A stretch of DNA of 64,000 nt, taken from the IMG/VR virus record IMGVR_UViG_3300035162_002132; one strand, given 5' to 3'. The position numbers and the translations under genes were made by a program. The notes under the pieces are model-generated. The model was given only the letters and a program-made list of their open reading frames with translations. It had not been told where the DNA came from and did no database searches. This stretch comes from a virus. Positions 24,629 to 46,344 of the stretch are shown one piece after another. Position 1 is the stretch's first letter. Every line of letters begins with the position of its first letter.

Positions 24629-25819
24629 TTATTCACCTCTTGTTAATGCGTGTAAGTCGTCCCAAGACATATCAGCCGCCGCTTCCATACTTGTTGGGAA
24701 GCCCGCAGGTAATGTCATAGACACTTCTTGTGCTTTCCTAATCTCGCTGTTTCTTTCTGTTAGAGATTTGCGTAGTTCAGCAAATTCTGTTTTCAGAGCC
24801 GCTACATCATCACGAGCATCATATTCTGCTCTTTCTGCCATAGACTTTTTTACAGATAGTTCGTTAGTAAACCTTGACTCGAACTCTTTACTTAGAGAAT
24901 CGTAAGCCATTGCTTCCATTCTTTCTGACTTGAATTTAGTATATGCCTTCTCGACATTCTCAACACTTAAATCAAGAGTAGAAAAATCAACATTTTCTAA
25001 TCCTTTAGATACTTTAAGAGGAGCAGGTGTTGCTACTGGGTTTCCACCAGTTACTACTTCTTCTCCTGCTTCACTATGTACCAAATCTATGTCAAGAGCA
25101 GCAAGTTTAGAATCTTCATCTTCTTCTTCTCCCTCTGCCATTTCTATATCTTCATCAGGCTTATCATCCATATATGCCATTTCGTTCTTCGTTACTTCGT
25201 CATCAATTTTTGTCCCTCCGAGTCCGTTGACTTGTTTCATCAAGTCATTCAACTCTTCGAGTGCTTTTTCCAAATTTTCACTCATCTTGTTGTCCTCCAT
25301 TTTTAAAATGTCGAATTTTGCTTCAGGATTAATACCCTTTTCACAGATAGTTACTTCGTGTAACTCTAATCTGTCTATCTCATTATACTCACCATATTCA
25401 TCAGAAGTCTTTTGCTTCTTTGATATAGCCTGTCCTCCTATACTAAAAGAACGAAGTGTTCCCTTTCTAATACCTCTTGAGATTTCTTTTGCTTTCTCAA
25501 TGTCATCTCTTAACTTGATAACAACATAGAACCCTACCTCATCTACTGCTGTCTTATGTAATACACCGTAACTATCTCGGTATTGTTCTACAACTTCTCC
25601 AACTTGTACATTAGAATGATTAGACATTACATTTCTGTATTTCTCATCAGACATGTATTTCTTAACTGCATCATTTAACGCTGCTAGTGTGATTAAGTCG
25701 TTTTGTTTGTCAACAATTTCTATGGAAGCATAACCTCCAATGATTAAACTATCCGACTTAAGAATAGTAAATTCATGAGAAGCCTCTGCCTTAAGTAAAG
25801 GAGATTCCATCATCAACAT
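24629..25819 (-). CDS. Prohead protease fused to scaffolding domain
   Basis: IIGGYASIEIVDKQND, MSNHSN (His), LRSFSIGG (Ser), LHEVTICEKGINPEAKF; acidic coiled-coil C-terminus. Confidence 0.9.
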   Translation of the reverse strand: MLMMESPLLKAEASHEFTILKSDSLIIGGYASIEIVDKQNDLITLAALNDAVKKYMSDEKYRNVMSNHSNVQVGEVVEQYRDSYGVLHKTAVDEVGFYVVIKLRDDIEKAKEISRGIRKGTLRSFSIGGQAISKKQKTSDEYGEYNEIDRLELHEVTICEKGINPEAKFDILKMEDNKMSENLEKALEELNDLMKQVNGLGGTKIDDEVTKNEMAYMDDKPDEDIEMAEGEEEDEDSKLAALDIDLVHSEAGEEVVTGGNPVATPAPLKVSKGLENVDFSTLDLSVENVEKAYTKFKSERMEAMAYDSLSKEFESRFTNELSVKKSMAERAEYDARDDVAALKTEFAELRKSLTERNSEIRKAQEVSMTLPAGFPTSMEAAADMSWDDLHALTRGE

Positions 25820-25869
25820 TACAATTAACTTTTCTACTCTTACTATATTAAATAACAGTAAGATTAGTT

Positions 25870-28470
25870 CTATTCAGGGCTTGGGAAGCCTAATACAGCA
25901 TATGTATCTTCGGTTATATTCCATTTGTTAGGATTATCTTTATCATCTAACATCTCTTGTTTTTTACCTGTCCAAGCAATCCAACTTTTTTTCTCATCTA
26001 AAGGTACTACTCTAAAGTGCATTCTAGTCTCAAACTTATCACCATCTAAACGATACTCATGATAGCCATCTTTTTGTATGCCTAATTCAATTACTCCTTT
26101 ATCTAATACTTTCTTAGACTCTCCAATTTTTTTAGAGATAATAGCAGGGAACTTACCTGATTTACCGAATAGAGAATAGATGTCATTACTACCTTCTATG
26201 TCTATTGTCCAAGCCATACGTTCTTCTTTATAGTCTATAATCAAATCCACATTACCATCTTCTCTCAACACAATAGTATATTCACCCATGTTGTCTTTCT
26301 TTACTAATTCTTCAACATCTTTCTCTAAAATGTCTTCTCTAGCAGTAAACTTATTTGGGTGTAAGTAAACTAAATCTTCCTGTTGTTTCATCCATGCCAT
26401 TAGTTTACCATCATTTGAATCAAACAAATCTGCAAACGCTCCTTGGTACTTATCTACCACAAAATCTAATATTTTACTAAAGGGTAGGTTGTCTCTACCA
26501 CTCTCTAATATTTCATTTCTAATTGCTAATCTAAACACAGAACGTTTACTTTTCATTATGTCAGCAACTTGTTCTTTCCAAATATCTATGTTATGTAATG
26601 CATTCTTTTGCATTAGGTTGTCTCCTTCAAAACCATAAATAGTAAACCCATTTAGGTCTTCTTTTAGAATTATCTCAGCAGTACCGTGTGTGTGGTCAGT
26701 AATGTAATATCCTTTCTTGACTTTCTTACTACCTGCTCTTGGATTTGCTAATCCACTAGTAACTTCAAACATATCGCTAACGTTATTACCAAATGAATAT
26801 GACATAGCACTCAAAGATTTCTTAGTTTTACTAGCAAGTTGTTCTAATGTTTCAACAGAATCAGAATGCGTAACTTCAGGTATTTCAATTACTTTAGCCG
26901 AAAATAGTTTGAATCCGTCTTTTCCTTTCTTTACTTCATCAACCTTAACTCTAACAATACTACCTAACTTTACAGATTGTTTAGTGTTTAGTGCTTTACC
27001 AACGGGTAAGTAATCTTTATCTTCGTATTCTACTGTTTTGTAATTTCTAGCAGTATCAGCATTAACTGGCCCAATACCCATTGTGTAAGAGTGTAAGTTA
27101 CTTTTTGTTTTCTTAGCGTCTAACACTACAACGTCTAAATCAACAAACTTCTTCCACTTTATCCACTTAGGATTTTTCTTAACCCCAATATAATATGTTG
27201 ATTCTATATCTTTAATTACGACTCCTTCTGATGCAGGAAGTTGCATAATCTCCTTTGCATATTCTTCTACTTCTTTAATAGAATCAGCAACTCTAGTATC
27301 TTTTTTAGATGGGAACGCTAAATGCTCTGAAGAATGTTGGGAGTATTGGTAAAGTAAAATATTGTGTCTTTCTCTCAATGTTTCATCTGCAATATTCTTA
27401 CCTTCATGAACCATTATATCAAAGACATGCGCTCTTAATTCTCCACCTTTCTTGTTCTTGAAAACGTGTGCAATAGTATCTGCTCTATGTAATGGTTCAT
27501 CTTCCATGAACAACATTAATTCTCCATCTAATATACAATCATTGAATGATTTCTTTTCAAGAGCCTTAACTTGTTCAGGACATTTATCGGTAATATCTTT
27601 TTCATTAAATGAATAGATTTTCACCTTATTGTTGAACTTATGGAGTTGTATTCTCATACCGTCATATTTTTCTTGAACAATATATTCTCCCGTTAGCCCT
27701 TTAATTTCTTTTAAATCATCAATTTCGAATATCCTATACATTGGTTTGTTAGGGATTATAAAATCAATAGATTGTTTTTCATCTTCACTTTTTGCAATGT
27801 CTAAATCTACTAAACTATCCCATTTATCTTCACTATATTCAGAACCATATACTTCTTGTAATAATTTATATGCACCCTTAAACTTGGATTCTATTCTTCT
27901 AGAGTCGCCATCTTCTTTCCCATAATGTTCTATGATGTAAAGTGGAATATCCTTTGGCTCTAAATCTAAACCCATGTAATTTCTAGTTATCTCATCGGGC
28001 TTCAAATTAAGACCTTCCCATGCTTTATCAGGAAGAGGATTAGCATGTGAACGTAGAGCATAATGTATGAATGCAGCAAACATTGATTTGTCTTTTAATA
28101 AACTAGCAATTACTTTATCTCCTAGTTGTTTAGAGAAAGGGTCACTAACAGAATTTGATTTAAATCTCATTTCTTTTATTGATTCATATAATTCTTTAGC
28201 CTGTCTAGACTTAGGGTTATATACTTCGTCAGAATATGCTGTGTCTTCTTTAAGATATACTTTGAGTTCTCTACTAAAATCATCTATGGTATCAAATTGT
28301 TCTCTAACTTCTTTGACAGTTTTCTTCCATGAATCACTATATTCATCAGGGTTTTCTCTTGCAGAAAGATAAGAATACCTAACACGCTCAAAGAAATCCA
28401 ATACTTTCTTAGTCATAGTGTTGGTTTCTTTTTCAAAAGATAACCCTGTTTGTGGCATATGACCCCTCAA
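25870..28470 (-). CDS. lig: ATP-dependent DNA ligase with N- and C-terminal extensions (probable start 28458)
   Basis: Motif I QEKYDGMR, III LDGEL, IIIa VFDIM, IV EGVVIK, V KWIKWKK, OB domain DLDVVV. Confidence 0.9.
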   Translation of the reverse strand: MRGHMPQTGLSFEKETNTMTKKVLDFFERVRYSYLSARENPDEYSDSWKKTVKEVREQFDTIDDFSRELKVYLKEDTAYSDEVYNPKSRQAKELYESIKEMRFKSNSVSDPFSKQLGDKVIASLLKDKSMFAAFIHYALRSHANPLPDKAWEGLNLKPDEITRNYMGLDLEPKDIPLYIIEHYGKEDGDSRRIESKFKGAYKLLQEVYGSEYSEDKWDSLVDLDIAKSEDEKQSIDFIIPNKPMYRIFEIDDLKEIKGLTGEYIVQEKYDGMRIQLHKFNNKVKIYSFNEKDITDKCPEQVKALEKKSFNDCILDGELMLFMEDEPLHRADTIAHVFKNKKGGELRAHVFDIMVHEGKNIADETLRERHNILLYQYSQHSSEHLAFPSKKDTRVADSIKEVEEYAKEIMQLPASEGVVIKDIESTYYIGVKKNPKWIKWKKFVDLDVVVLDAKKTKSNLHSYTMGIGPVNADTARNYKTVEYEDKDYLPVGKALNTKQSVKLGSIVRVKVDEVKKGKDGFKLFSAKVIEIPEVTHSDSVETLEQLASKTKKSLSAMSYSFGNNVSDMFEVTSGLANPRAGSKKVKKGYYITDHTHGTAEIILKEDLNGFTIYGFEGDNLMQKNALHNIDIWKEQVADIMKSKRSVFRLAIRNEILESGRDNLPFSKILDFVVDKYQGAFADLFDSNDGKLMAWMKQQEDLVYLHPNKFTAREDILEKDVEELVKKDNMGEYTIVLREDGNVDLIIDYKEERMAWTIDIEGSNDIYSLFGKSGKFPAIISKKIGESKKVLDKGVIELGIQKDGYHEYRLDGDKFETRMHFRVVPLDEKKSWIAWTGKKQEMLDDKDNPNKWNITEDTYAVLGFPSPE

Positions 28471-28979: not shown

Positions 28980-28985
28980 ATTATT

Positions 28986-29216
28986 TCACTCCATTTCTTT
29001 TACTAGTTTGTGTATGTCATCCCAACCCATACTCTTGTTGATTGTACTTCCACCGACAATATTTCTACTATCCATAGTAGGGGAAGGGGAATCATATACA
29101 ACGTATCCTGATTTCATTAATAGATTGTCTTTGTGATATACTGCGTCTTCTAAAGACCTTACTTTATCAACTAATTCTTTCAGTAGCATAAGCATCTCAT
29201 TGTTTTCTTCACTCAT
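28986..29216 (-). CDS. Small head-region protein ending in scaffold-like helix (start revised to 29216)
   Basis: GGTGA RBS before 29216; C-terminus MGWDDIHKLVKEME resembles scaffold end MSWDDLHALTRGE. Confidence 0.7.
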   Translation of the reverse strand: MSEENNEMLMLLKELVDKVRSLEDAVYHKDNLLMKSGYVVYDSPSPTMDSRNIVGGSTINKSMGWDDIHKLVKEME

Positions 29217-29301
29217 TATATTCACCTGACTTTATATCATTTATAGCAATTAACATGTCTTCTCTAATTCTTTGTCTTAGAACTATTTTCCAGTCTATCA
29301 T
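29209..29301 (-). CDS. 30-aa microprotein MIDWKIVLRQRIREDMLIAINDIKSGEYNE (not in ORF track)
   Basis: AGGAG RBS upstream; fills the gap; W-x-x-V-L-R tag variant. Confidence 0.5.
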   Translation of the reverse strand: MIDWKIVLRQRIREDMLIAINDIKSGEYNE

Positions 29302-29344
29302 GTAACTCCTGCTCCTTCGTGTAGTGGTCTAGTTCAATAATGTT

Positions 29345-29695
29345 TCACTTGTCATCTTTTTTCTTATTCTCAGGATAAACCATCTTTCTTAATTGTCGGT
29401 ATAGTGTTTCATAGTCTTTCCTCAACTCTGATGCTGAAGCAAGTATCTCTAGATTCTTCTCATCAAACCCATCTACTTGCTTACTCAATTTCTTATCTGA
29501 TTTTACTATATCAATATCTTTTAGTTCACTAATTAAATCAGAGAGTTGTGTCATCTCTTGACCCATAGCATTAGTTGGTTGAGACTTCTGTAAAAGTTTC
29601 TTAAGTTTTTTCTTCTTCTTAGCATCTATCTTTTCAATAAATACAGGTGAGAAGTAGAATCCTTCTGCTTTAATAATATCATCAAACCACGTCAT
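29345..29695 (-). CDS. Tagged head-region protein (MTWFDDIIK)
   Basis: N-terminal tag; ATGA overlap. Confidence 0.75.
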   Translation of the reverse strand: MTWFDDIIKAEGFYFSPVFIEKIDAKKKKKLKKLLQKSQPTNAMGQEMTQLSDLISELKDIDIVKSDKKLSKQVDGFDEKNLEILASASELRKDYETLYRQLRKMVYPENKKKDDK

Positions 29696-31395
29696 TGAGA
29701 TGCCTCCGGTGTCTCTTCAGATGTAGGTTCATCTAATGATTGTTGTTGTGTAGGTAGGTTTTCTAGAACTCTATCTAGTACTTCTATTTTATTTGTTAAT
29801 ATAGGAAGTTGTTCGTCATAGTATTCTATCCATTCCCTAAGTAACTCTTTATCGTCTTCTATGTCATCTTCATCAATATTATGAGGATTACTACCATCAA
29901 CCAATTCTTGTAAGGAAACTTTAAAATTATCTGTTCTTGTTTGATAATCCTGTATTAGTTCTAACAACTTATCTTTAGTTGTTGTAAATAGTCTAATTTG
30001 TTGAGATGGATTTTCAGGTAAGTTTCCTGATTTAGCATCTTCTGCTAGTCCCTTAACCTTACCACTAAACTCATTTAATTTTTCTTCAAGTGTTTTCGAT
30101 TCTTCTAATGTTTTAGGGCCAAGATACCTATCAGGATATTTAGTTCCCCGTACTCCAAACGTAGGGGCATTAACTTTAGCCGGTGTTTTTGTTCTTTTAG
30201 TCTCAGCATTAGGCGCAAACTTACTAGGGTCTTCTTCATATAATTCCCAAGCAGTATCTAAATGTGGAAAGTCTCTATTCATTTTAAGCGAAGAACCTCT
30301 ACGTTTATTTGCTATTCTTTTTGCTGATTTTAACCTGCTCTCTTTTAATCTACTAAAGTCACCAGTTAAAGTATTGATTCTAATCAAGTATTCTAAAGCA
30401 TCAAATTGCTTTTCCAACTCTCCCTTTCTTTCTCCTTCACTCATCTTTTCATTAGCGGTATGGACTATATCAGGTACTAAACGATAAATCATCCTAAGAA
30501 TATTATCAGAATTAAAGAACAACCTGTAATGGTCGGCAGGGTCTGCACTTTTCGTTTGTATCAATTCAGTTATTTCATCAACAAACTTATCCACATCTAA
30601 AGAATAATATTGTTCTACTCCTTTTATACCTGCTTCTAACTCTCCTGTTTTTCTCACTGGTATTCTAGCAAATTGATATATTTCTAGTAGAACATCAATA
30701 CTAGATTTACCATTATATTCTCTAACTTCTGACCATGAACCATCTTCATACCTATTTCCTCTAGGAATAAATAGAGCAGAAACATCCGCCTTCAACCTAC
30801 CTTTGCCTTCAAGTAAGTATTCTTGCATTAGTTTTGAACTAGATGCAAGATTTTTTCTCATGTTATTTATTGTATTTTTAGCCTTAGCATTATTACCATA
30901 CTTAGACCAAGTTTCTAATAGCATCTTAAGTTGTTTTGCAAACTCTATACTTTTGTCTGTTCTAACACCCAAAGCCATTTTTATTTTTTCTAATGGTTTG
31001 TCATCTCCTTCGAATAAGAAATTATACAGTTCGCTTTCATCTTCTTGTAAATCTCTTAAATCAAAACTACTTCCTTCTCTCAGTCTTTCTAAACTACTAA
31101 CTTCAGGTTTTAATGTTCTTTCCACAGCATTAATTTTATTTATGAACTTCCTCTTACCCTTTTCTAAAGCAACAGCATCTAAACCACTAGGCTTACCTGT
31201 AAAAAACCCACTTCTCAAAATATTATCTAAGTTATCATTTGTTCTTGACTCTACTTCTAATAATTTATCAGCCCGAAATAATATACTTTTATCGAACTTA
31301 AACTGTTCATTTTTATTCGCAGCATCAAACGCCCACCAAACATCAGCATGGATTTCAGACCCATCTGCTTTAATTAAGACATTCATGAAAGACAT
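29692..31395 (-). CDS. Large tagged head-region protein (MSFMNVLIK), 567 aa
   Basis: GGTGA RBS; variant tag. Confidence 0.75.
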   Translation of the reverse strand: MSFMNVLIKADGSEIHADVWWAFDAANKNEQFKFDKSILFRADKLLEVESRTNDNLDNILRSGFFTGKPSGLDAVALEKGKRKFINKINAVERTLKPEVSSLERLREGSSFDLRDLQEDESELYNFLFEGDDKPLEKIKMALGVRTDKSIEFAKQLKMLLETWSKYGNNAKAKNTINNMRKNLASSSKLMQEYLLEGKGRLKADVSALFIPRGNRYEDGSWSEVREYNGKSSIDVLLEIYQFARIPVRKTGELEAGIKGVEQYYSLDVDKFVDEITELIQTKSADPADHYRLFFNSDNILRMIYRLVPDIVHTANEKMSEGERKGELEKQFDALEYLIRINTLTGDFSRLKESRLKSAKRIANKRRGSSLKMNRDFPHLDTAWELYEEDPSKFAPNAETKRTKTPAKVNAPTFGVRGTKYPDRYLGPKTLEESKTLEEKLNEFSGKVKGLAEDAKSGNLPENPSQQIRLFTTTKDKLLELIQDYQTRTDNFKVSLQELVDGSNPHNIDEDDIEDDKELLREWIEYYDEQLPILTNKIEVLDRVLENLPTQQQSLDEPTSEETPEASQ

Positions 31396-31404
31396 TATAT
31401 CACC

Positions 31405-31633: not shown

Positions 31634-31876
31634 TTAATTACCTTTCCTTTTCTCTTCTTCTAGATTTTTCTTTGCTCTTGCTATGAATGACTTCTGTCCT
31701 GCTGTTTTGTTTTTTGGTTGTTGCATGAACTCATTCATCCAACTAGTGTCTGCTGCTTCTTCCAATTCTTCAGGAAGTTTATAGTCAGGTTTCTGCATAT
31801 CTTCATCATCACCAAACTCATCTGCTACTGATTGTTCATAAGGAGTTAATGTTTTTAGTATATCTTTCCAACTCAT
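31634..31876 (-). CDS. Tagged protein (MSWKDILK; start revised to 31876)
   Basis: GGTGA RBS then TAAAATG after the upstream stop. Confidence 0.75.
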   Translation of the reverse strand: MSWKDILKTLTPYEQSVADEFGDDEDMQKPDYKLPEELEEAADTSWMNEFMQQPKNKTAGQKSFIARAKKNLEEEKRKGN

Positions 31877-31877
31877 T

Positions 31878-32195
31878 TTATTCACCATGTCTATATTTAG
31901 CACCATAATTAGATATAAATTTTGAATCCTGTCTGTCGGCAGATAAATTTTCTGTTGACCCGCCATATTTTGCTACTTCAATTAAATCTTTATCCAAGTC
32001 ATCTAATATTTTTCTTAAGTCTTTAACATGAGTTTTAATCATTACTTCGCTAACTTCTGTTGGTTTTGCAATTTCTTCTTCTATAAAAGTAAGTTTCAGT
32101 TCCATAGACTTTAGCCTACTATGTATACCAATAAATCTACCATGCTCTGATTGTGGCCCTTGAAATTTTTCTTTCAATACGTCTTCCCAACTCAT
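31878..32195 (-). CDS. Tagged protein (MSWEDVLK)
   Basis: Tag plus GGTGATTTAGAATG start block. Confidence 0.75.
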   Translation of the reverse strand: MSWEDVLKEKFQGPQSEHGRFIGIHSRLKSMELKLTFIEEEIAKPTEVSEVMIKTHVKDLRKILDDLDKDLIEVAKYGGSTENLSADRQDSKFISNYGAKYRHGE

Positions 32196-32206
32196 TCTAA
32201 ATCACC

Positions 32207-32566
32207 TTATATCTTATACACATACTCAGCCTTTTTATCTGAAGGTGTTATATTATTTACATAAACCTCAACATGATAGTCTCCTGCATCGGTGTCAGGG
32301 TTTCCAAAAAGCGACTTCGGAAATCTTTCTTTCATAATATGTGCTAATAGTTTCTTTTCCAACATATCTCTAACCATGCTTTTTGTTTCTTTTTCTGTTA
32401 TAAAATCTGCTTCTCCATGCATAACGCTACTGCTAGGGTCTTTTACTTCTACACGGGCTGATAACTCAAAATGTAAATCGTCAAAAGCAACTCCTTTTAC
32501 GGGTTCAGAAGGTGATGTAAACTTTTTACTTTCACCATCATTTTTTACTATATCTTTCCAACTCAT
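32207..32566 (-). CDS. Tagged protein (MSWKDIVK)
   Basis: Tag plus identical start block. Confidence 0.75.
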   Translation of the reverse strand: MSWKDIVKNDGESKKFTSPSEPVKGVAFDDLHFELSARVEVKDPSSSVMHGEADFITEKETKSMVRDMLEKKLLAHIMKERFPKSLFGNPDTDAGDYHVEVYVNNITPSDKKAEYVYKI

Positions 32567-32572
32567 TCTAAA

Positions 32573-32983
32573 TCACCGCTTCCTCATATTTGTTGGTCTT
32601 CCTTGTTTCGAATAATCTTTTTCTCTCTCAAAGTTTCCATGTATATCCATATGAAAGTAGGTAATATAATTCCTTTTATCACTTACGAAACCCGCAGTAT
32701 TGTAATTTCTATCCCGAACACCAACATACAAACCCTTTTCGAATTCGTTTTGGTCGAAACGTGCAGGGTCACCAAAGATATGAATATCTAATTCTTTTCC
32801 TAACCCATCTAAAGCACTACCATCATTAATTTCCTTCTGCATTTCATTTATCTTTTTTTGGTTATAATCTGTTTTTTCAAAAAGATGTCTATTTAAAAAT
32901 CTTTCAACTTCTTTTTCTAACCTATCAATAAGTTTTGCACTAGAATTTGTTTCGGTTTTTTTTAATATACTTTCCCAACTCAT
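32573..32983 (-). CDS. Tagged protein (MSWESILK)
   Basis: Tag plus identical start block. Confidence 0.75.
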   Translation of the reverse strand: MSWESILKKTETNSSAKLIDRLEKEVERFLNRHLFEKTDYNQKKINEMQKEINDGSALDGLGKELDIHIFGDPARFDQNEFEKGLYVGVRDRNYNTAGFVSDKRNYITYFHMDIHGNFEREKDYSKQGRPTNMRKR

Positions 32984-33053
32984 TCTAAATCACCTACTAT
33001 TGGTAAACTCATTCCTACATTCCAAACTATTATATCTGTAAATAATCTTAATT

Positions 33054-34712
33054 TCATCCTACTCTCCTCTCTGTTCTCTTGTCCACATTTTCATTTCCTG
33101 CTTCTCTTGGTAATCCAGTAAATCTCTTATCAGGGCCAGTTGACATGGACGGCTTGTTCCTCGTAGCCGGGGGGTTCTCTTGAGGTTTGCTATTTTCTCC
33201 ATCTTGATTACCCATCATCATCTGTTCTTGCATTTGTCCCATTTGACTAGCATCAACATCTGTTCCTGCATATGGGTCTAAACTAACATCTTCCTTTCCT
33301 TCACTACTTTCTCCCTGTTCAGGTTGGGGTTTAGGTTTAGTGTAAATGAATCTCCCTTCATCATCCATATCAACTTCGAATCCTAAGTTCTTAATCGCAG
33401 CAGCAACGTTAACTTCTATCTCTCTCTTACGAAGAACAGCAATCTCATCTTCTTCTTCTGATGGAGGTAACTTAAGTTGCCAATCTGTAATACCAAACTC
33501 CTTAGTCATAAACGGGAAAACATAGTTGTTCCAAATAGTCTGTGCCATTTCTACTGCTCTGTTAGTAACTAGTACTTGCATACCCTCATTATTGAGTCCA
33601 CCACTAGCAGAGTTATCAGCCATGAAAATCTTACTAACTCCATAGAAAGCAGATATTCTATCTCTTAAATCATCTTTAACTTGTATGTAGTCCATCTCTT
33701 TCAGACTGTCCATGAACTTAACCCATTCAACAGAACCCTTACCACCTTCAGATTCTATTCCCATTACTGGTATAAAGTGTGGGTCTTGTTCCATCTTCTC
33801 TTTGACCCCACGCCAAAAAGATTTCATAGAATCCATGTTTCTAGTTTGAACTGCCAATATTCCTTTAGGCATTCTTGCCTTAGTATATGATGAATTAACA
33901 TAGTTTTCCATAGCAATTAAAGTAGTCACATTATTCCATAATGTTATCACAGGTGAAAGACCATACAAACGACTAGGGGAATACTTACTAAAATGTAATA
34001 CTTCACCTTTCACGAAATACTGTTCTTCTCCATTTACTCTATTAACATAATGAACGGGGTGTAGTTCTGAACTACAAACTTCACATAATTCAGTGGTAGT
34101 TGAATGTATTCTATCACGATGACGCAAACAAGTAAACCCACTCTTTCCTCTTTCACCTAGTTCATTAGAATAAATATGCATCGTCACTGGGTCGCCACGG
34201 TAAACTTCTTTGATTCTATGCATTCTAACTGAGTTATTATTATCTGCAAAATACTCTTTAACCATAACCATGTATGCATCGTCCATAATATTCAAATCAT
34301 CCTCAAGTTCTTTAAGAACATCAATAAACATCTGTTCTGAACAATTAACATATCCTTCTAAGAAGTCTTTAGCATATTTTAATTGCTCAGGATTTGGTTT
34401 GTTTAAATCTACACTACCACAGTCTGCACATTCTTTTGTTGCATTTTCATGTTCTTTACCACAAGACCCACATTTAACTGCAAACATAGCATCCCAATGG
34501 TATCCTCGTCTAAATATTTCTTGTTTAAGTTGAGTAATACAAGTTCTAACAATAGTAGACTGAGTAACTATATGATATATTATGGGAGATGTTAACATAT
34601 AAGAGGTATCTTTTTCCTGAATACCCATGTTGAATACTGTTCTATCTGCGGGTTTTGGCGTAGTCTGCCTAAACAGATTACTAACACTAAATCTTCTTTT
34701 TTCTTCTACCAT
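33054..34712 (-). CDS. Portal protein with Zn-ribbon insertions
   Basis: VRTCITQLKQEI, DLNIMDDAY, EVLHFSKYSPSRLYGLSPV, RISAFYGVSKIFM portal motifs; near TerL. Confidence 0.85.
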   Translation of the reverse strand: MVEEKRRFSVSNLFRQTTPKPADRTVFNMGIQEKDTSYMLTSPIIYHIVTQSTIVRTCITQLKQEIFRRGYHWDAMFAVKCGSCGKEHENATKECADCGSVDLNKPNPEQLKYAKDFLEGYVNCSEQMFIDVLKELEDDLNIMDDAYMVMVKEYFADNNNSVRMHRIKEVYRGDPVTMHIYSNELGERGKSGFTCLRHRDRIHSTTTELCEVCSSELHPVHYVNRVNGEEQYFVKGEVLHFSKYSPSRLYGLSPVITLWNNVTTLIAMENYVNSSYTKARMPKGILAVQTRNMDSMKSFWRGVKEKMEQDPHFIPVMGIESEGGKGSVEWVKFMDSLKEMDYIQVKDDLRDRISAFYGVSKIFMADNSASGGLNNEGMQVLVTNRAVEMAQTIWNNYVFPFMTKEFGITDWQLKLPPSEEEDEIAVLRKREIEVNVAAAIKNLGFEVDMDDEGRFIYTKPKPQPEQGESSEGKEDVSLDPYAGTDVDASQMGQMQEQMMMGNQDGENSKPQENPPATRNKPSMSTGPDKRFTGLPREAGNENVDKRTERRVG

Positions 34713-37793: not shown

Positions 37794-38354
37794 TTACTTC
37801 CTCATAATATAAAACCAATTAGAAGCAGGGCGGTAATACAATTTTCTAATGGCTGTTGTAGGGGCATTTTCTCTCGCTAATTTTTCAAAGACTTCTTTAA
37901 CATCTTCAGGAATATCATCTTGGCCTATTACTTTCCTATTACCATCAAACTGTATTTCTTGAAATCCTTGACGATTAACAAAAACAGAGAGTCCTTTAGG
38001 CATAGCCTCTCCTACTATTGGCCTATGACTATGTAAATCAATTACTTTTTTTGATACCCATAATCCTGCACCCCTAGTTTGTTCTCTAGATAACCCAGTT
38101 TCTGTTGCATGGCTCTTTAACCCAGTCAACAAAAATATATTTTTGTAAGGAGCAATACCTTGAACTGCAACAGGTTTTCCATCTTTTACTGTTGGATGAT
38201 ACGCAATGTAATACTTTGGTCTAACTCGTGCAAACATTGTATTGTTCATTAGTTTATATCGTTGCGCTCTAGTTTCGTAGGTAATACCATGTTCAGCAAA
38301 TACCCTAACCACCTCTTCCTCAGACATAGGGTTAGATATTTGAAACTCTTCCAT
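37794..38354 (-). CDS. Possible GNAT-fold acetyltransferase
   Basis: QTRGAG (motif A-like) and GLSVFVNRQGF (motif B-like); ends NWFYIMRK. Confidence 0.45.
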   Translation of the reverse strand: MEEFQISNPMSEEEVVRVFAEHGITYETRAQRYKLMNNTMFARVRPKYYIAYHPTVKDGKPVAVQGIAPYKNIFLLTGLKSHATETGLSREQTRGAGLWVSKKVIDLHSHRPIVGEAMPKGLSVFVNRQGFQEIQFDGNRKVIGQDDIPEDVKEVFEKLARENAPTTAIRKLYYRPASNWFYIMRK

Positions 38355-38358: not shown

Positions 38359-41091
38359 TCACCTAAAATTTGCTTTGAGGAAATACACTCCTTCTTTTGG
38401 TACTCCGTGTTTTTTACTCAGTTCTTCCATTGACGTTGTTTCAGAAACAATATTTTGAATTTCATATGCAGAAATATCAACATGATATTTTGATTTCATA
38501 ATGAGCATAGCAGAATGAACGTGTTCGAAATTATCCGTCTTAGCAGTATTATAGTATATCGGTTTACCTAACATTTTTCGAATACTATCGTGTGCATCTA
38601 ATAACTTAGTATCAATATCACTTCTTATGATTTTCATACCATCAACAGCAATAACAAATCTCTGTACTATTGTATTAGCACCTTTAGTTCGTCTATCCTT
38701 TCCACGAACCATTGTTCTTTTACTACCACTGTAACCACCGATGTTTCTTTTGATATGACTTTCAATTGCTTCAAATGGATATACGTTTGATTCATCATAT
38801 AGTTTATTCCACTCTGATGGAGTCTTACCTCTTGCATTTGGGAATTTTTCACCTTCAGGCCAACTAATGTCGTTGGCTTCTAATACCTTATGTAAATAAG
38901 TTCCAAACTCTATGTTAGTTTCTTGTGATAATATGGAGTTTCTTTTATTCATAAGAACAAAGTTAACTGCTTTTATTCCCTTTGTTAGTTCATTCACTAA
39001 TCTACCAATATCTTTCTTATCATCTACCGAACTCAGGAACTCTAACATTCTAGTCAAATCTTCCAACTCATTCGCTTTAACCATTAAGTGTCCTGCTCTG
39101 CCTTCTAACGCTAACACTTTGAACAATGCCGTATCTGTTCTACCTGTTGCTAATGCTCTGAATATTCTACGAGTTTTATTTGTTTTAGTGTCAAACGGGA
39201 ACTCATCATCAAATGGTTTGTTAGAACCACTGATGGGAACTACGAAATAATCTAACACTGCTTCAATTAAATCATTAAATTCTTCTCTTGCTTCTTCTAT
39301 ATCTGCTAAGTGGTCTTTTCTGTTTATAGTTCCTAGTTGTGGTCTTTTTTGTGAAGGTACTCCTTCACTAGAAGAACCAACCTTTGCTTGTGCAGGTGAA
39401 GATGCTCTATCTAAATCATCACCTGCGTCTAATATCTTACTTATATTATCTAAGAAATCCCCAATAGCAGATAATTTTTTGTTAATACCACTTTCAGTGT
39501 TCATGGCCTTATCATCAACATTCCAATTTTCTGTCACCATGAATTTGTTTACTGTTTCTGTTAATGGTAAATAATATGGCCCATTTCCACCTTTAGCCAT
39601 AGTTTTCTCTACTTCATCAACATAAGCATTAATCTTATCATCCATATCAACACCAGTAGCCATCTCTCTAGAAGCACCTGCTCCTAACATGGCTTCTCTC
39701 AAAGTGTTAATATCATCTCTAAATGCAACCGTATCTTTGAACGCTCCTGATTCAGCATTGAAAGCATGATAGAAAAGAGGGTCTACTTTAGTAGCCATCC
39801 TTTTAAGTTTAATACCAAACCTAGAAAGTTCTTCTAATTCTTTCTTGTTCTCTGCCGCACTAACATTTCTTTCTTGTGTAACAGCGTCATCAGAATCAAA
39901 CGTCTGACCACCATCTTCTACGGTAACTGTCTCTTTGTAATCCCCACTAGTTTTATCATAATATCCTTCTTTTCTAGCACCTCTATCATCAGAAGTATCC
40001 TTTAGAGTATCTAAACCTACTTCAGCAATAAACTTCTCATATAATGCAAGACCTTTGTGTTTTTTGAAATAAGGTTCAAGTTCTTTAGGATTAATTTTAA
40101 CAACATAATCTAGTTCATTGTTATTGACTGCCGATTTATATGATAGAAACATATCTATTATATCAGCAATCTCTTGTTTATCTTTGTCATCCCTATTGTC
40201 TCCCTCAACTAACATATCTCTAATAGGAAGAAAGGCTTCATTACATGCATTGTATGCGTCTACAAAGTTTTTGTACTTACCCTTATGACCTTTCCAAAAG
40301 TTGTAAATCCTATTACGCCTATCTAATCTTTTAAGGTCTAGTTCACCTATTATTTGGTCAGCATCTAAATGAATTATTTGTTCTTCTACTTTGTCTAATG
40401 GTCTTAAGACTGTAACAAGTGGTTGAAGTCTTCTTTGAATCGCAGGGGTTTGGTTCTGTATTATAAACTTCCATCTCTCTATGTTTTTCATTTTTACATT
40501 TCTATCTCTAAGTGAAACCCTAGTTAGATTCCTATCTTGTTCAATTGTATTCCTATACGTTAATTGTTTACCGTCTTCATCTAAGAAGTTCTTTAAAGTT
40601 TCATGTAATAGTTGTTTATCTCTCGTAATAGATTTATCATCATCAACAGTATCGCTCACTAAGTCAGTACCTTTAACCCCGCCTTTAACTTCAGATAACT
40701 TTAGTAATTGTTTTACCATTAAATCTCTAGTTGTTTTAGGTATGTCACTAAAATCTGAGTATTTAGCGTTAATATCTTCAACAAGCATGTTAGTAAGTTC
40801 GCCCATTTGTTTACCTTTGAGTTGATATTTACTAGAGAGTTTACCATTACTAATAAAATCAGTATCTTTACTCAGAAATCTGTGTAGGAAATCAGGCTTA
40901 AACTCATCAAAATAATCATCAAGTCTATCATCTGCTTCCATCTCTATTTGACTTTGTAGGTTCTTTAATTCATCTTCACTCATGTCTGCATACTTATCAG
41001 ACTCTTTGACTTTCTTTTCCGCAAACTCTTCTAACGAATCAGCGTTAACCATTAGTAATTCAAACACTTCGTATAATTCACTATCATCCAT
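38359..41091 (-). CDS. Large acidic hypothetical protein (910 aa), candidate ejection/internal protein
   Basis: D/E/K-rich helical ORF in the head module. Confidence 0.75.
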   Translation of the reverse strand: MDDSELYEVFELLMVNADSLEEFAEKKVKESDKYADMSEDELKNLQSQIEMEADDRLDDYFDEFKPDFLHRFLSKDTDFISNGKLSSKYQLKGKQMGELTNMLVEDINAKYSDFSDIPKTTRDLMVKQLLKLSEVKGGVKGTDLVSDTVDDDKSITRDKQLLHETLKNFLDEDGKQLTYRNTIEQDRNLTRVSLRDRNVKMKNIERWKFIIQNQTPAIQRRLQPLVTVLRPLDKVEEQIIHLDADQIIGELDLKRLDRRNRIYNFWKGHKGKYKNFVDAYNACNEAFLPIRDMLVEGDNRDDKDKQEIADIIDMFLSYKSAVNNNELDYVVKINPKELEPYFKKHKGLALYEKFIAEVGLDTLKDTSDDRGARKEGYYDKTSGDYKETVTVEDGGQTFDSDDAVTQERNVSAAENKKELEELSRFGIKLKRMATKVDPLFYHAFNAESGAFKDTVAFRDDINTLREAMLGAGASREMATGVDMDDKINAYVDEVEKTMAKGGNGPYYLPLTETVNKFMVTENWNVDDKAMNTESGINKKLSAIGDFLDNISKILDAGDDLDRASSPAQAKVGSSSEGVPSQKRPQLGTINRKDHLADIEEAREEFNDLIEAVLDYFVVPISGSNKPFDDEFPFDTKTNKTRRIFRALATGRTDTALFKVLALEGRAGHLMVKANELEDLTRMLEFLSSVDDKKDIGRLVNELTKGIKAVNFVLMNKRNSILSQETNIEFGTYLHKVLEANDISWPEGEKFPNARGKTPSEWNKLYDESNVYPFEAIESHIKRNIGGYSGSKRTMVRGKDRRTKGANTIVQRFVIAVDGMKIIRSDIDTKLLDAHDSIRKMLGKPIYYNTAKTDNFEHVHSAMLIMKSKYHVDISAYEIQNIVSETTSMEELSKKHGVPKEGVYFLKANFR

Positions 41092-42860
41092 TATGCTCGG
41101 CCTCCTTCACTAGCAATCCATTCGAAGGGTTGTATTGCTCCTTTTTTATTATGTAGGATTGGTTCTTCCATAACTTGAGACATTTTATTCTTTATTCTCA
41201 CTAATAGTTCTGAATGAAGTTCGCCATATGATTTAGTCAATTGTGCTTTGAACGTCTTAATTCCTTCATCATCTTTATTTTTTCTAAGCCGCCTAAGTGC
41301 CATGTCTAAAACTCTGTCTCCTAACATATACCCTTCTAATATTACTATTGCCTCCAACAAATCTGAAAACCTCAATGTTTGATTATGAGATAAGGTAGGG
41401 TCTTTCAACTTATTTCCTTCACCACTACGGCTAGTTAGATAGTTACCAATCGGGTCGTTATCTACTTCTTCGAATAGAAATTGTAGTGTTGGAATACGTT
41501 GTTTATCTATTATAGAAACTGAACCTTCCTTACCTCGCATTTCTTTTAATGCCGCTAAAATCTGTTCGGGGTTTCCATATTCAGTATCTCCTTTAGTCAT
41601 TCTTTTGACTGAGGTTCTAAGTGGTCTGGAAAATAAGTAGCCTAATTCTTGCTTAACCAACTTCTGTTCTTCTTTACTCGCTCCGCCTTCCATCATAGCA
41701 ACAAGAGAATCTCTAAGTTTTTCTGACATAGTATATTTTCTAACCTTAGTTTCAGTAAGTAATTTTTCATAGTCTTCCCCTAAGTCAGCATTGTAAACTG
41801 CTGTTTTGAATTGCCCATAACCTGCTGTCCCTGTCTTCTTATTACCCTGACCCGTTTTTACAAACTTATTATACAGAGCAACTATCTCAGCATTTTCTAC
41901 TAAACCATCTCTAATGTTTGTTTGAAGTTGTTTCTCTTGTAGTGATTGCTTTGTTTGTTGTTTAACAAAACCAACATCTAAGTTAATAGTGTTATTACTC
42001 ATAATATAGTCTATGGCAGGTTGTATTCGACTAGTACCTGCTCCACTGTCTGCTCCAAACAAATCTTGCATTATCTCTTTCATATTTCTAGATACTTGTT
42101 TAATATTATCACTACTATGAATACTTAAATTTGGCATAAAAGGTTCTCTTGCCTTACCTCGAATAGAAGTTACCACCATTCTAACATAATCAGCAGCAAA
42201 CGAATCTGATATGGTTGAAGCATCTAGTGATTGAGATGAGGCTACTTCTCCATCATTATATTCAGGTAATCTATACACTTTTCCTAAACTAGTTCTAACT
42301 ATTGGTTTAGACGGAGTTCCCCCTGATAATAGTTTACCTTGTTTATCAGACAAACTATCAGGTAATGTTACCGTTAATTGTTTATCGAGTACATATTTTA
42401 AATCTGTTAACTTATCAGTATCGAAAGTTAGTGGTAGTTGTAATGTTATACCCTCTGTTTCATATCCATAAAGTTCAGGTTTGTCTTTGATATAATTGAA
42501 TATCTTATCGCCATTTTCTTTATCCCACTTAAGTAGCCTACTAATCTTAGCACCTGATTTAGATGGTGTCACTCCTTCTAAGAAAGAAATTAAAGGTTTG
42601 TGATTACCTGCAAGAAAGTCTTCATATAATTTTATTTCTTTAGGATTTTTATAATCATCATCTTTTTTTGAAGCACCTAATTTATCCAATAGAGGTTGAA
42701 ACTCTTTCTCATGCACACCATCTTCTACTAAGTTATTGATTGCCCTTCTAATCTGAGACTTACCATGATTAGCAAGTATCTCATCAAAGTTACCTGACTT
42801 TCTAGAAGCAATAATCTTGTCTCTGAGAGTTTGCCTTTTCAGAATATCTGTCCAATTCAT
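41091..42860 (-). CDS. Large tagged protein (MNWTDILK), 589 aa
   Basis: N-terminal tag; GAGG RBS. Confidence 0.75.
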   Translation of the reverse strand: MNWTDILKRQTLRDKIIASRKSGNFDEILANHGKSQIRRAINNLVEDGVHEKEFQPLLDKLGASKKDDDYKNPKEIKLYEDFLAGNHKPLISFLEGVTPSKSGAKISRLLKWDKENGDKIFNYIKDKPELYGYETEGITLQLPLTFDTDKLTDLKYVLDKQLTVTLPDSLSDKQGKLLSGGTPSKPIVRTSLGKVYRLPEYNDGEVASSQSLDASTISDSFAADYVRMVVTSIRGKAREPFMPNLSIHSSDNIKQVSRNMKEIMQDLFGADSGAGTSRIQPAIDYIMSNNTINLDVGFVKQQTKQSLQEKQLQTNIRDGLVENAEIVALYNKFVKTGQGNKKTGTAGYGQFKTAVYNADLGEDYEKLLTETKVRKYTMSEKLRDSLVAMMEGGASKEEQKLVKQELGYLFSRPLRTSVKRMTKGDTEYGNPEQILAALKEMRGKEGSVSIIDKQRIPTLQFLFEEVDNDPIGNYLTSRSGEGNKLKDPTLSHNQTLRFSDLLEAIVILEGYMLGDRVLDMALRRLRKNKDDEGIKTFKAQLTKSYGELHSELLVRIKNKMSQVMEEPILHNKKGAIQPFEWIASEGGRA

Positions 42861-43117
42861 TATACCTCACCCTCATGGAATAAATCTTCACTATCTTCGG
42901 TATGGGTTTCACCTGTCATAAGTTGACCCTTAGTCTTATGAGTTTTACCAGTCCACAATTTACCATTTTTCTTATAGTGTTTCATATCGGGACTTTTTTT
43001 AGCAGACTCGACCTGTTCGATTATTTTTAAAGCATCAACCATAGGTTCTTCTTTATCACCATCTCCATCCAAATCAGGATAGTCAGGTTTTTGTTTTAAA
43101 ATGTCAAACCAACTCAT
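42860..43117 (-). CDS. Tagged small protein (MSWFDILK)
   Basis: Tag plus KPDYPDLDGDGDKEEPM and HYKKNGKLWTGKTHK motifs seen in small marine-phage proteins. Confidence 0.75.
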   Translation of the reverse strand: MSWFDILKQKPDYPDLDGDGDKEEPMVDALKIIEQVESAKKSPDMKHYKKNGKLWTGKTHKTKGQLMTGETHTEDSEDLFHEGEV

Positions 43118-43134
43118 TGTAATTTCTCCTCCAT

Positions 43135-43590
43135 TTATTTTGACGCTTCATAAGTTATTGCTAATTGTTCAAGGGTAAGGTTGCCATTCTCGTATTTCAT
43201 CATCAAATCGCCTCCTTTGAGGTCTACTTCTAAAACTAATTGGGATTTTTGATTCAAATTAACAACATACTCAACATCAAACTCACTATTGGATGCCTCA
43301 AACTCAAAAACCTTTTTTGTAATAAAATCCTTATCTTCATAGTCTTCATCATTGGGAGGAATCCTAGAATAGAAACTGACTTCACCCTCTACTCTATCTA
43401 TTTGTTCTAAATATACTCCACCTTGATTTTCTGTTGTAGTATAAATCTTAAAAGAATAACTACTCACTTCTAATCGTTTTTTATTAGAATCTAATATTTC
43501 TACTGAAAAGTTTCTATCCTTGTGGGTTATATTTTGCCACACTTCCATTTCTTGCTTCTTAATGTCTTTTAGTATATTTTTCCAACTCAT
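43135..43590 (-). CDS. Tagged protein (MSWKNILK), beta-rich acidic
   Basis: Tag; GGAGAA RBS. Confidence 0.75.
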   Translation of the reverse strand: MSWKNILKDIKKQEMEVWQNITHKDRNFSVEILDSNKKRLEVSSYSFKIYTTTENQGGVYLEQIDRVEGEVSFYSRIPPNDEDYEDKDFITKKVFEFEASNSEFDVEYVVNLNQKSQLVLEVDLKGGDLMMKYENGNLTLEQLAITYEASK

Positions 43591-43613
43591 TGTACCTTCT
43601 CCTTCTTAATAAT

Positions 43614-43949
43614 TCAACGATTCTCATATCGTTCTTTGATTTCATTATCTGTAAATTCACTAGGTAATACTGGAAACATTATATCGTGTTCAGTAAACCC
43701 ATACATAGAATTATCAAACTCATCATATAGTTCATCAATTTCTTTCTCTTGAGTTATTGGGTCTAACCGATAAAACTTACTCCTAAACTTACCAAACTCT
43801 TCTGCTTCATCTTGTAGCGTTCCATCATTTCCATGAGGACTTTCATATTTTCTTCCGAAGCGTTCTAAATCATTTGTAAAGTCTTCATATAATGTTTTTA
43901 TCATATCATTTATTGTGATATCTTGTTTCAAAATGTTTTTCCAACTCAT
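43614..43949 (-). CDS. Tagged protein (MSWKNILK; start revised to 43949)
   Basis: ATGA overlap with upstream stop. Confidence 0.75.
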   Translation of the reverse strand: MSWKNILKQDITINDMIKTLYEDFTNDLERFGRKYESPHGNDGTLQDEAEEFGKFRSKFYRLDPITQEKEIDELYDEFDNSMYGFTEHDIMFPVLPSEFTDNEIKERYENR

Positions 43950-44317
43950 TGATGCCACGACCCCTGTTCAGGATAAAAATCCATAGCCTCTTCAATATCG
44001 TCTTTAAAATTTTCAGCAACTTCTAACCAATCAACATCTGATATTGAATCTCCTACTTCATCTCTATCATTAACGGGAGATAATAAATCATCCATAAACC
44101 CTTTATTTTGAGACATCATTTCGGGCAACTCTTTTGCTATTGCATTTAATACATCTTCAATAACTTCTTCTTTAGACCAATGCCAATCAAGATAGCCTTT
44201 TACCTTTTGTTTGATTAATTGTATTATAGGAAAATAATTTGCTTCCTCGTTCATAACCCACAAATCTGCACTTCTAGTTGCAGTTGTAGTGTCTTTCAAA
44301 ATATCAAACCAACTCAT
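43946..44317 (-). CDS. Tagged protein (MSWFDILK)
   Basis: Tag; ATGA overlap with TerS candidate. Confidence 0.75.
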   Translation of the reverse strand: MSWFDILKDTTTATRSADLWVMNEEANYFPIIQLIKQKVKGYLDWHWSKEEVIEDVLNAIAKELPEMMSQNKGFMDDLLSPVNDRDEVGDSISDVDWLEVAENFKDDIEEAMDFYPEQGSWHQ

Positions 44318-44970: not shown

Positions 44971-45051
44971 TTAATAATCTCCACAATAAGGACACATTGT
45001 CCCTGACCAATTATCTTCATCTAACTTATCTATTCCTCTACAACAGTTCAT
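44971..45051 (-). CDS. 26-aa Cys-rich microprotein MNCCRGIDKLDEDNWSGTMCPYCGDY (not in ORF track)
   Basis: Exactly fills the gap: ATGA overlap upstream, TAA-ATG abutting downstream. Confidence 0.6.
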   Translation of the reverse strand: MNCCRGIDKLDEDNWSGTMCPYCGDY

Positions 45052-46172
45052 AATGCCACCAACATATCTTGCCAACTATCTATTGATTTTTTCTCTTCAT
45101 CTAGTTTAGGTCTTGTACCAAACTTCAGTGGGTATGCCGCTATGTCTCCACTAGTTCTAGCCCAATGTAATGACATGCCTTTTGATTTAGCACGAATAAT
45201 AGCCATCCTTTTAATCTGCCTTCTAGATAGTTTGAACCAACATTCTGTGATGTCATTATCAACACTTAAATTCTTTAATGTTTTAACTGCTTCAGATTCA
45301 GTCTCGGTACTAATGTCAAACCCTTGAGTATTGAATAGTTTCCAAATTGGCTTATCGGGAAAAGAACCCGTTGTACCCTTGCCCTTATCCAAGGCAGAAT
45401 CAATTATATCTCTGATAAATGATATTGTTAAAGCAGTAGTTGCAGCCTTTGCTCCTTCAATGGGTACGCGGTTATCTTCCCCTAATGCCATATCAGCATT
45501 TTCTAATGTTTCAATTGCATTTTTAATTATACTATGTAAACTAGGGGAATTGAAAGGTGAAGCATTACCATCACCGTAAAGAACTTGCCAAAAGGGAGGT
45601 TGTGCTGCATTCTGTGTCTCGTTATACCACTCACTATCTTTAGCAGGAGCATCTTGACCTTTTAATTCTCTTACTGTTTCATATTCGTCAGTTCTGTAAT
45701 GTCCAAAAACAGGCTTAGTATTCAATATTGCTCCTGTTCTATCAGACCAATTGGAAGGATTTGAAAACTTAATATTTCTAGGGTCTGCGCTAGTTCCTTG
45801 AATATTATCCATTATAGTATCTACTTTCTTTAATGCAATTTTTTGCGCCTGTGTCATATCTCTACTATTGAATACAGTCTTCAAACCTTTGAATATTTGA
45901 ACTCCACCTTTACCCTTTATTTTAGTTCCGACCTTACCTTTAACTCTACCCGCAATGCCTTGATTCTTCACTAAGTCTAACAAACTTAACCCTCTTGTTT
46001 CAGGACTCATCATACCAATAGTGTCACCCCTAAGACCTTCTGCTTTTCTTTGCCAAATCTCAAACTCTTCTCTAAAAGATTTAGAGGTTACGTCTAAACT
46101 AGCAGAACTTCCATCAGGTAGTTTTACTGGTAAGCCTTTCTTTTTTCTTACTGGCTTTTTTCCTTTTACCAC
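45048..46172 (-). CDS. Hypothetical protein (374 aa) ending SWQDMLVAL
   Basis: GTG start; C-terminal tag-like helix. Confidence 0.7.
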   Translation of the reverse strand: MVKGKKPVRKKKGLPVKLPDGSSASLDVTSKSFREEFEIWQRKAEGLRGDTIGMMSPETRGLSLLDLVKNQGIAGRVKGKVGTKIKGKGGVQIFKGLKTVFNSRDMTQAQKIALKKVDTIMDNIQGTSADPRNIKFSNPSNWSDRTGAILNTKPVFGHYRTDEYETVRELKGQDAPAKDSEWYNETQNAAQPPFWQVLYGDGNASPFNSPSLHSIIKNAIETLENADMALGEDNRVPIEGAKAATTALTISFIRDIIDSALDKGKGTTGSFPDKPIWKLFNTQGFDISTETESEAVKTLKNLSVDNDITECWFKLSRRQIKRMAIIRAKSKGMSLHWARTSGDIAAYPLKFGTRPKLDEEKKSIDSWQDMLVAL

Positions 46173-46344
46173 GTTTTTTACCCCCTATTGATTCGTTGTT
46201 GAATAGTGCTGATGTTCCAGTCGAAGAAGTAGTGACTGCTCCCCCCATTCTTAGGATGTTAAACCAAGAATCTTTGGAAGCCCTAACTAAACCTTGCTGT
46301 GTCCCACTAAGACCAAGACTATCAAACTTACTTATGTTACTCAT
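46114..46344 (-). CDS. Small basic protein with internal SWFNILR motif
   Basis: 76 aa; K/R-rich tail. Confidence 0.65.
   Translation of the reverse strand: MSNISKFDSLGLSGTQQGLVRASKDSWFNILRMGGAVTTSSTGTSALFNNESIGGKKRGKRKKASKKKERLTSKTT

Follow-up and report, generated by a model that had tools for sequence, protein, structure and literature searches.

An eight-residue N-terminal peptide on unrelated head-region proteins of a magrovirus: a candidate capsid-targeting signal

The 64,000-nucleotide stretch held in IMG/VR as virus record IMGVR_UViG_3300035162_002132 (the window), which its genes identify as a magrovirus, a tailed virus of Marine Group II archaea, poses the question of why a series of dissimilar proteins encoded around its head genes should start with nearly the same eight residues. 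An earlier note had listed 13 N termini of the general form MSWxDILK (hereafter the tag) and read them as a loading signal that mimics the scaffold. All 13 were found to translate as described, each at the position it had been assigned. The explanation favored here, and held to be moderately probable, is that MSWxDILK is a portable capsid-targeting peptide like the capsid-targeting sequence (CTS) of phage T4, probably removed by cleavage after its Lys.

The tag in the window and in related viruses

Ten minus-strand genes of the window begin with the strict form M-[STN]-W-x-[DNS]-[IV]-[LIV]-K. These encode proteins of 80 aa (31634–31876, MSWKDILK at 31853–31876; the list of open reading frames (ORFs) extends this one upstream to 31966), 105 aa (31878–32195, MSWEDVLK at 32172–32195), 119 aa (32207–32566, MSWKDIVK at 32543–32566), 136 aa (32573–32983, MSWESILK at 32960–32983), 103 aa (34714–35025, MTWFDIIK at 35002–35025), 589 aa (41091–42860, MNWTDILK at 42837–42860), 85 aa (42860–43117, MSWFDILK at 43094–43117), 151 aa (43135–43590, MSWKNILK at 43567–43590), 111 aa (43614–43949, MSWKNILK at 43926–43949), and 123 aa (43946–44317, MSWFDILK at 44294–44317). 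Three further N termini, on the same strand, are variants. The 116-aa protein (29345–29695, MTWFDDIIK at 29669–29695) represents a core tagged family found in 75 of 81 loci, and the 567-aa protein (29692–31395, MSFMNVLIK at 31369–31395) is taken to carry a degenerate tag because its relatives begin MTFMDVLK or MTWTSILK. The third is a 30-aa ORF with the weak variant MIDWKIVLR (29209–29301), whose reality as a gene is uncertain; MIDW starts recur nine times in relatives. Together the tagged genes span 29.3–44.3 kb, around the portal, terminase, and protease genes. Those of their products that were clustered each fell into a different BLAST family, in line with the claim that they are mutually unrelated.

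The starts of several tagged genes run into the stop codon of a conserved gene of the head region (as ATGA or TAATG), so that these genes are part of the late operon. The start of the 103-aa gene overlaps the upstream stop by 4 nt (ATGA) and its end lies 2 nt before the portal start, and the start of the 123-aa gene overlaps the stop of a 218-aa gene upstream. Judged by this arrangement, the tagged genes are translationally coupled to the head genes.

A six-frame scan for W-x-x-[ILV]-[ILV]-[KR] gave 11 matches directly after M-[STN] on the minus strand, and none of the nine plus-strand matches stood in this context. With a scoring matrix derived from relatives, the ten strict tags scored 18.6–21.9 bits, the best other site in the window proteins 12.2 bits, and the rest ≤5.7 bits. 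The 12.2-bit site is an internal SWKKTVK of the head-module DNA ligase (residues 43–49; 28312–28332, minus strand), in which the Trp is kept in every relative listed and the V-K part is not always kept. It may be a weak internal tag or merely a conserved helix and was not counted, being only partly conserved as a tag-like motif. Another internal tag-like sequence, DSWFNILR, occupies residues 25–32 of a 76-aa ORF (46114–46344, minus strand) that overlaps the start of a 374-aa gene.

The tag recurs on a large scale among about 200 related loci. Of the 1702 predicted genes that lie ≤10 kb from the portal in the window and 80 relatives, 415 start with M-x-W, and all regular-expression matches lie on the coding strand. 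A catalogue that includes loci from a DNA-pattern scan holds 754 distinct tagged proteins of 30–869 aa (median 107 aa), which form 337 BLAST clusters, by this clustering mostly singleton families. Each of five near-complete genomes (92–103 kb) carries 7–15 strict tags, all on one (coding) strand and within ~20 kb round the portal and terminase; the replication half of these genomes holds no strict tag, and a reversed-pattern control gave 0 matches. The claim that no tail or right-arm gene starts with the tag stands for the window and these five relatives and fails in one locus, L089. There, on the reverse strand, genes starting MMWESILK, MWRDTLKK, MSWQDILK, and MSWENILK lie directly downstream of tail-fibre-like genes (~8.9–10.7 kb of the reversed locus), so that the tags are not strictly head-side in all relatives; these four genes are still in the late direction. 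Offset variants (MWFNIIK, MWQNIILK, MSDWFDVVK) occur in more distant relatives, and one locus (L064:2659-5274) holds four tandem paralogues of ~204–226 aa each, starting MTWFSIVK, MWFSIIK, MWFKILK, and MWFNILK.

The tag DNA pattern matched >120 stretches in viral contigs, nearly all of them magroviruses. In the genomes of 185,579 prokaryotic species only 36 scattered single matches were found, none in Poseidoniales. This is about as many as chance predicts, and a host signal was therefore rejected.

Selection was found to act on the peptide. Information content is 1.2–6.6 bits at residues 2–8 and ≤0.5 bits from residue 9 on. Synonymous sites more conserved than the amino acids, by which a signal held in the DNA was to be recognized, were not found: codons 5–8 vary while the residues are kept. 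Synonymous usage at these codons is near background, with all six codons used for Leu7, GAT for 73% of Asp5 (background 68%), and AAA for 65% of Lys8 (background 54%); among 327 pairs drawn from within families, 36% show a synonymous difference at codon 8 and 4% a non-synonymous one. Ser2 is encoded by AGT in 97% of cases, and codons 2–4 end in A or T. Because this preference extends to untagged genes that have a ribosome-binding site (AGT in 111 of 143 position-2 Ser codons; third-position GC content (GC3) 0.17–0.23), this is attributed to a general start-context bias. The decisive point is that the W motif is also conserved far from start codons, at the C termini described below. By these patterns, selection on the tag, a discrete and portable peptide, works at the level of the protein rather than the DNA.

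Three consecutive tagged genes of the window (starts 32195, 32566, and 32983) share an identical block of ~20 nt, GGTGATTTAGA-ATGAGTTGG, which comprises the ribosome-binding site, the spacer, and the first three codons (32184–32206, 32555–32577, and 32972–32994, minus strand). This identity exceeds what the peptide needs, and it suggests local cassette duplication or recombination on top of selection on the peptide.

Likeness to the scaffold C terminus and modularity of the tag

The prohead protease of the window, a Peptidase_S78 protein fused to the scaffold (24629–25819, minus strand), ends in MSWDDLHAL (~24644–24670). A scaffold C terminus of the form [MILV]-[ST]-W-x-[DE]-[IL]-[HN] is present in 65 of 65 relatives, and the tag matches it at all six positions of M-S-W-x-D-I/L. 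The peptide recurs at the ends of other proteins, all on the minus strand in the window. A core protein of 76–79 aa (28986–29225) ends MGWDDIHKL (29004–29030), with the motif in 64 of 75 family members, and the 374-aa protein (45048–46172) ends DSWQDMLVAL (45051–45080), with a C-terminal W motif in 14 of 14. The ending NWFYIMRK (37797–37820) of a 186-aa protein (37794–38354) is shared by only 6 of 60 family members, and other members of that family carry an N-terminal tag instead. In some members of a fourth family (two sequences listed) the C terminus is SWKDILRR-stop. The four C-terminal W peptides of the window are thus those named in the earlier note.

Of that note's reading of the tag as a scaffold-mimicking loading signal, the portability, the modularity, the head-proximal location, and the similarity to the scaffold tail are borne out. 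Co-variation between tag and scaffold tail was not found: across 65 loci, the residue before the Trp did not co-vary between scaffold tails and tags, at positions that are too conserved for such a comparison. The linker after the protease domain (25270–25300, minus strand) is indel-rich, usually with a conserved Met before [ST]-E-[KN]-L-E-K-A-L. This Met might, by analogy, be the internal start of a separate, nested scaffold protein, an arrangement for which the C/Nu3 pair of phage lambda is a precedent.

The tag behaves as a module. The match of the 103-aa protein to phrog_7595, of which it is a member, covers residues 8–103 only. This family has >8000 homologues, mostly in marine phage-like contigs, and 103 of the 120 best homologues lack the tag and start directly at the family's own N terminus, while the magrovirus copies have MTWFDI[IVM]K prepended. 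From this comparison, a widespread marine-phage family bears an MSWxDILK-type tag only in magroviruses. Three proteins of 140–143 aa (P0002–P0004) join in frame two small domains that are widespread in marine phages, MPIRKVKGGYKWG... and that of phrog_7595; here the tag, MDWFDTLK, is internal, at the junction of the two. The alignment of the core tagged family, represented by the 116-aa protein, consists of the tag, an indel-rich linker, and a conserved helical body. An AlphaFold2 model of this protein likewise has a short helix at the tag (residues 3–10), a low-confidence linker, and a helical body.

The tagged proteins are soluble as a class, since 335 of 337 cluster representatives have no predicted transmembrane segment. 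Pfam and PHROG searches were almost blank, both for the window's tagged proteins and for the 40 largest from relatives; the 567- and 589-aa proteins match no family in either, and searches of the ESM Atlas with these two gave no usable match. The few domain matches among tagged proteins are to PAP2, pentapeptide repeats, DUF5754, and, weakly, sigma70_r3. The 40 largest include a PAP2-superfamily phosphatase (E 1e-14) and a pentapeptide-repeat protein (E 2e-11), one of them at L141:9366-10379 (minus strand). Pentapeptide-repeat proteins are known DNA mimics.

Proposed capsid targeting and cleavage, and competing explanations

As a capsid-targeting peptide, MSWxDILK would be an amphipathic helix of two turns, attached by a floppy linker, of which any soluble protein expressed late could gain an N-terminal copy. 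It would be a copy of the conserved C-terminal peptide of the protease-scaffold (MSWxD[IL]H) and, for that reason, would most likely dock at the same place in the assembling procapsid, either on the inner face of the capsid protein or on the scaffold core. The partner is placed inside the procapsid mainly because the tag resembles the scaffold C terminus, and because scaffold C termini bind capsid where structures exist. Docking would bring the proteins of a large and rapidly changing set into the head, where the HK97-type prohead protease would then cut the tag after its Lys and free the cargo.

The cut is placed after the Lys because the I/L-L-K ending of the tag matches the LLK of the major capsid protein (MCP) and because Pro never follows it in any cluster. 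Residue 8 is Lys in 289 of 336 tags and Arg in 14. Pro is found at residue 9 in 0 of 337 clusters (1 of 754 proteins), and at residues 10–16 it occurs 15–28 times per position, often as K-x-P-P-P. In the MCP (23235–24626, minus strand), LLK closes the short N-terminal segment: NALLK followed by A/S at residues 24–29 (24543–24557) is a candidate maturation site, and across 22 sequences, including a sister lineage, L27-K28 is invariant with Ala, Ser, or Gly at residue 29. An AlphaFold2 model of the MCP from the 22-sequence alignment had a mean pLDDT of 40 and was uninformative on the place of K28 in the fold. Removal of the tag after its Lys is thus a plausible prediction.

The sister lineage, reached through homologues of the phrog_7595 protein, is a second magrovirus-like group with 43% GC and contigs of ~109–110 kb (L200:10001-14124 and 17966-18169; G006 (L205) 17928-18815). 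In its head module the MCP keeps ELLK-A at the equivalent place, and the scaffold ends MEWGEVHRL. Its proteins, including its phrog_7595 homologue, carry a terminal tag of a different form, P-[IFM]-D-x-A-[WM]-x-x-L-K; one protein bears it at both ends. That scaffold tail and MCP LLK are kept, and the two tags are alike only in the L-K ending, supports a common role for a hydrophobic-L-K ending.

A number of points weigh against capsid targeting with cleavage. The binding partner, the cut, encapsidation, and delivery into the host are all predictions drawn from sequence. Residue 9 of the tags shows no preference for small residues. Hydrophobic-hydrophobic-Lys stretches had been pointed out in the MCP (NALLK) and in the protease at PLLK (25790–25801), FTILK (25757–25771), and FDILK (25301–25315, just before the indel-rich linker); all are present, and FDILK and TILK lose their value as independent evidence of cut sites, since they are conserved segments of the protease domain. 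FDILK lies inside the Pfam Peptidase_S78 match and aligns with AKFGVVSK of the protease of the halovirus HVTV-1, and just upstream of that alignment TILK-S lines up, by eye, with VFKSK; neither is therefore a tag-like insertion. The I-L-K ending could instead, by analogy with the RIIK of phage 80alpha, be a binding hook and not a cut site, and the geometry of binding could then account for the lack of Pro at residue 9. Across the two lineages the comparison of tag with scaffold tail was negative for co-variation, the tag differing while the tail stays the same, so that simply mimicking the scaffold tail is not a general rule for such tags. HVTV-1, the closest cultured relative, has no shared N-terminal tag. 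The demand on the capsid would also be considerable, with a dozen or more proteins, some of 570–870 aa, beside ~95 kb of DNA. As to gene content, the portal-protease interval of HVTV-1 (L199, 9781–18115) encodes two very large proteins, of 1048 and 1313 aa, together with a "head assembly" protein, in place of an array of small tagged genes.

The alternative that survives best, itself unlikely, is that the tag docks on a viral hub outside the capsid interior (portal, terminase, the head-module ligase, a chaperonin, or a replication/assembly factory) and gathers accessory proteins there without packaging them. Such a hub would fit the sister lineage, where the tag changed and the scaffold tail did not and the partner need not be that of the scaffold, as well as the L089 genes that follow tail-fibre genes, and it would sidestep encapsidation, which in magroviruses is a prediction. 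It sits poorly with a tag that agrees with a conserved scaffold C terminus at six of six positions and is confined to the late structural region, given that scaffold C termini bind the capsid protein in resolved systems (PMC5644958).

Less probable again is that the tagged proteins enter the procapsid only as helpers of scaffolding or assembly and are lost, by degradation or expulsion, before the DNA is packaged, so that nothing is delivered to the host. In its favor, the scaffold shares its W peptide with the core 79-aa protein and forms one polypeptide with the protease, and the 116-aa member of the core tagged family is modelled as all-helical and scaffold-like. The 337 unrelated, mostly singleton families, with a PAP2 phosphatase and a pentapeptide-repeat protein among them, argue against this, resembling instead a pool of accessory arms-race genes.

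An intrinsic element, such as an oligomerization or regulatory helix inherited from a common ancestor and acting without a shared partner, is very improbable. Tandem paralogues among the tagged genes, such as the four in L064, are what common descent would give; the sharp boundary at residue 8 with an indel-rich linker beyond, the tag prepended to a family untagged elsewhere, and the same motif at the C termini of unrelated core proteins are not. A DNA or RNA feature with a functionless peptide (recombination scar, translation-initiation cassette, or downstream box) is largely refuted and was rejected, since the AGT and low-GC3 bias at codons 2–4 extends to untagged genes, codons 5–8 vary synonymously near background, Pro is excluded at residue 9, and the motif recurs at C termini, which leaves in its favor that codon bias and the ~20-nt block, non-coding spacer included, of three neighboring genes.

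Capsid targeting by MSWxDILK therefore invites comparison with characterized packaging signals. The T4 CTS is a 10-residue N-terminal peptide of internal proteins that suffices for loading into the core and is cut by gp21; the loci that bear it are poorly conserved, and it has been proposed as a route to incorporate varied proteins (PMC9026906). As in the T4 internal proteins (IPI, IPII, IPIII, and the polymorphic IP loci), the magrovirus tag is a short N-terminal peptide, here of 8 residues with a sharp end at residue 8, on otherwise unrelated, poorly conserved, and mostly small proteins (337 clusters) of variable loci. In each case targeting would fall to the upstream residues and cleavage would follow the last one (a prediction in the magrovirus), and both peptides are portable to foreign proteins. 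The order of an aromatic, an acidic, and two hydrophobic residues before the P1 residue is a pattern that we take to be analogous in the two. The differences are equally clear. The T4 protease is gp21 and its P1 residue Glu, whereas the magrovirus protease matches Peptidase_S78, XkdF-type models, and halovirus proteases, its tag ends in Lys, and its host is archaeal. The scale is far larger in magroviruses, at about one-quarter of head-proximal genes and 337 families, and the magrovirus tag resembles the C terminus of its own scaffold. CTS function is proven by experiment, whereas that of the magrovirus tag is predicted.

In phage 80alpha, the scaffolding protein binds the N-arm of the capsid protein through a C-terminal amphipathic helix and a hook (RIIK), an element that CpmB of SaPI1 copies (PMC5644958). 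The likeness lies in a short amphipathic helix ending hydrophobic-hydrophobic-Lys and in the reuse of a scaffold peptide by a second protein, as the W peptide is common to the magrovirus scaffold, the 79-aa protein, and the tags: in both systems a peptide conserved on the scaffold C terminus is found on other virus proteins. The 80alpha element is C-terminal, confined to two proteins, and uncleaved, whereas the magrovirus version is N-terminal on hundreds of proteins, and there is no sequence similarity beyond the hydrophobic-hydrophobic-Lys ending.

An N-terminal signal of P1 DarB suffices to send this large protein and a reporter into the capsid, where the Dar cargo counters host defence (PMC9024508). 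The magrovirus tag is the predicted counterpart of this capsid-localization signal, which differs in being ~30 residues long, on one protein, without a shared motif, and dependent on other Dar proteins for loading. The magrovirus tag is not homologous to the T4 CTS or to the DarB signal.

In the giant phages SPN3US and phiKZ, many head-internal proteins are processed by the prohead protease as the head matures (PMC7411985, PMC10052503). The propeptides there, as far as these accounts describe them, are long and dissimilar and share only a cleavage motif, in contrast with the common 8-residue tag of magroviruses. Among the papers searched, none describes the magrovirus tag and none combines capsid targeting with an archaeal virus, and two papers on magroviruses make no mention of N-terminal motifs.

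Encapsulin cargo-loading peptides are a further parallel: carried at a protein terminus on a flexible linker, these short peptides dock many kinds of cargo on the inside of a shell with the HK97 fold. They are usually C-terminal, have another consensus, need no protease, and serve shells without DNA.

Head genes of the window and meaning for magroviruses

The genes of the window are ordered along the minus strand, from ~52 kb down to position 1, and its head genes were identified by profile searches (Pfam, PHROG). Besides the MCP and the protease-scaffold, these gave the ATP-dependent DNA ligase (25870–28470), the portal protein (33054–34712), which served as the anchor for collecting related loci, and the large terminase subunit (36359–37792), all on the minus strand. 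A total of 372 relatives of the portal protein are present in IMG/VR, their marine contigs reaching ~103 kb. The nearest cultured relatives of the protease are those of the haloarchaeal viruses HVTV-1 and HCTV-1/5 (~102 kb), and a sequence search of the protease domain against the PDB gave no meaningful match.

A ligase embedded in the structural module is a feature of magroviruses of groups A and B (PMC5434244). The window was assigned to the magroviruses because the ligase within its structural module matches this description and because its head genes (MCP, portal, protease, and terminase) are halovirus-like; the genomes of its relatives, at ~95–100 kb, agree with a group A/B-like magrovirus. 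Magroviruses are among the most abundant archaeal viruses of the surface ocean. Their hosts, the Marine Group II archaea (Poseidoniales), are uncultured.

It is possible, and put forward only tentatively, that the magrovirus tag defines an open cargo-loading system, in which an 8-residue peptide derived from the capsid-docking tail of the scaffold admits any soluble protein to the HK97-fold capsid, the prohead protease cuts the peptide off after its Lys, and the freed cargo passes into the host together with the DNA. The hundreds of interchangeable tagged genes would then be an arsenal of injected effector or anti-defence proteins. The last step, delivery of cargo into the host, is speculation.

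A tag of the capsid-targeting type is in itself already known, from T4 and P1. New here would be its occurrence in an abundant archaeal virus and its unusual scale. A shared address label would give the function-unknown, head-proximal genes of magroviruses one common, testable role and would point to virion-delivered proteins in an archaeal virus, and the eight-residue length makes the idea testable without culturing the virus. If it holds, the tag would also be a compact packaging signal for HK97-fold shells, of use in protein delivery and nanocontainer design. More generally, the likeness of the tag to the scaffold tail suggests that capsid-targeting tags may arise repeatedly, by copying the docking peptide of the scaffold.

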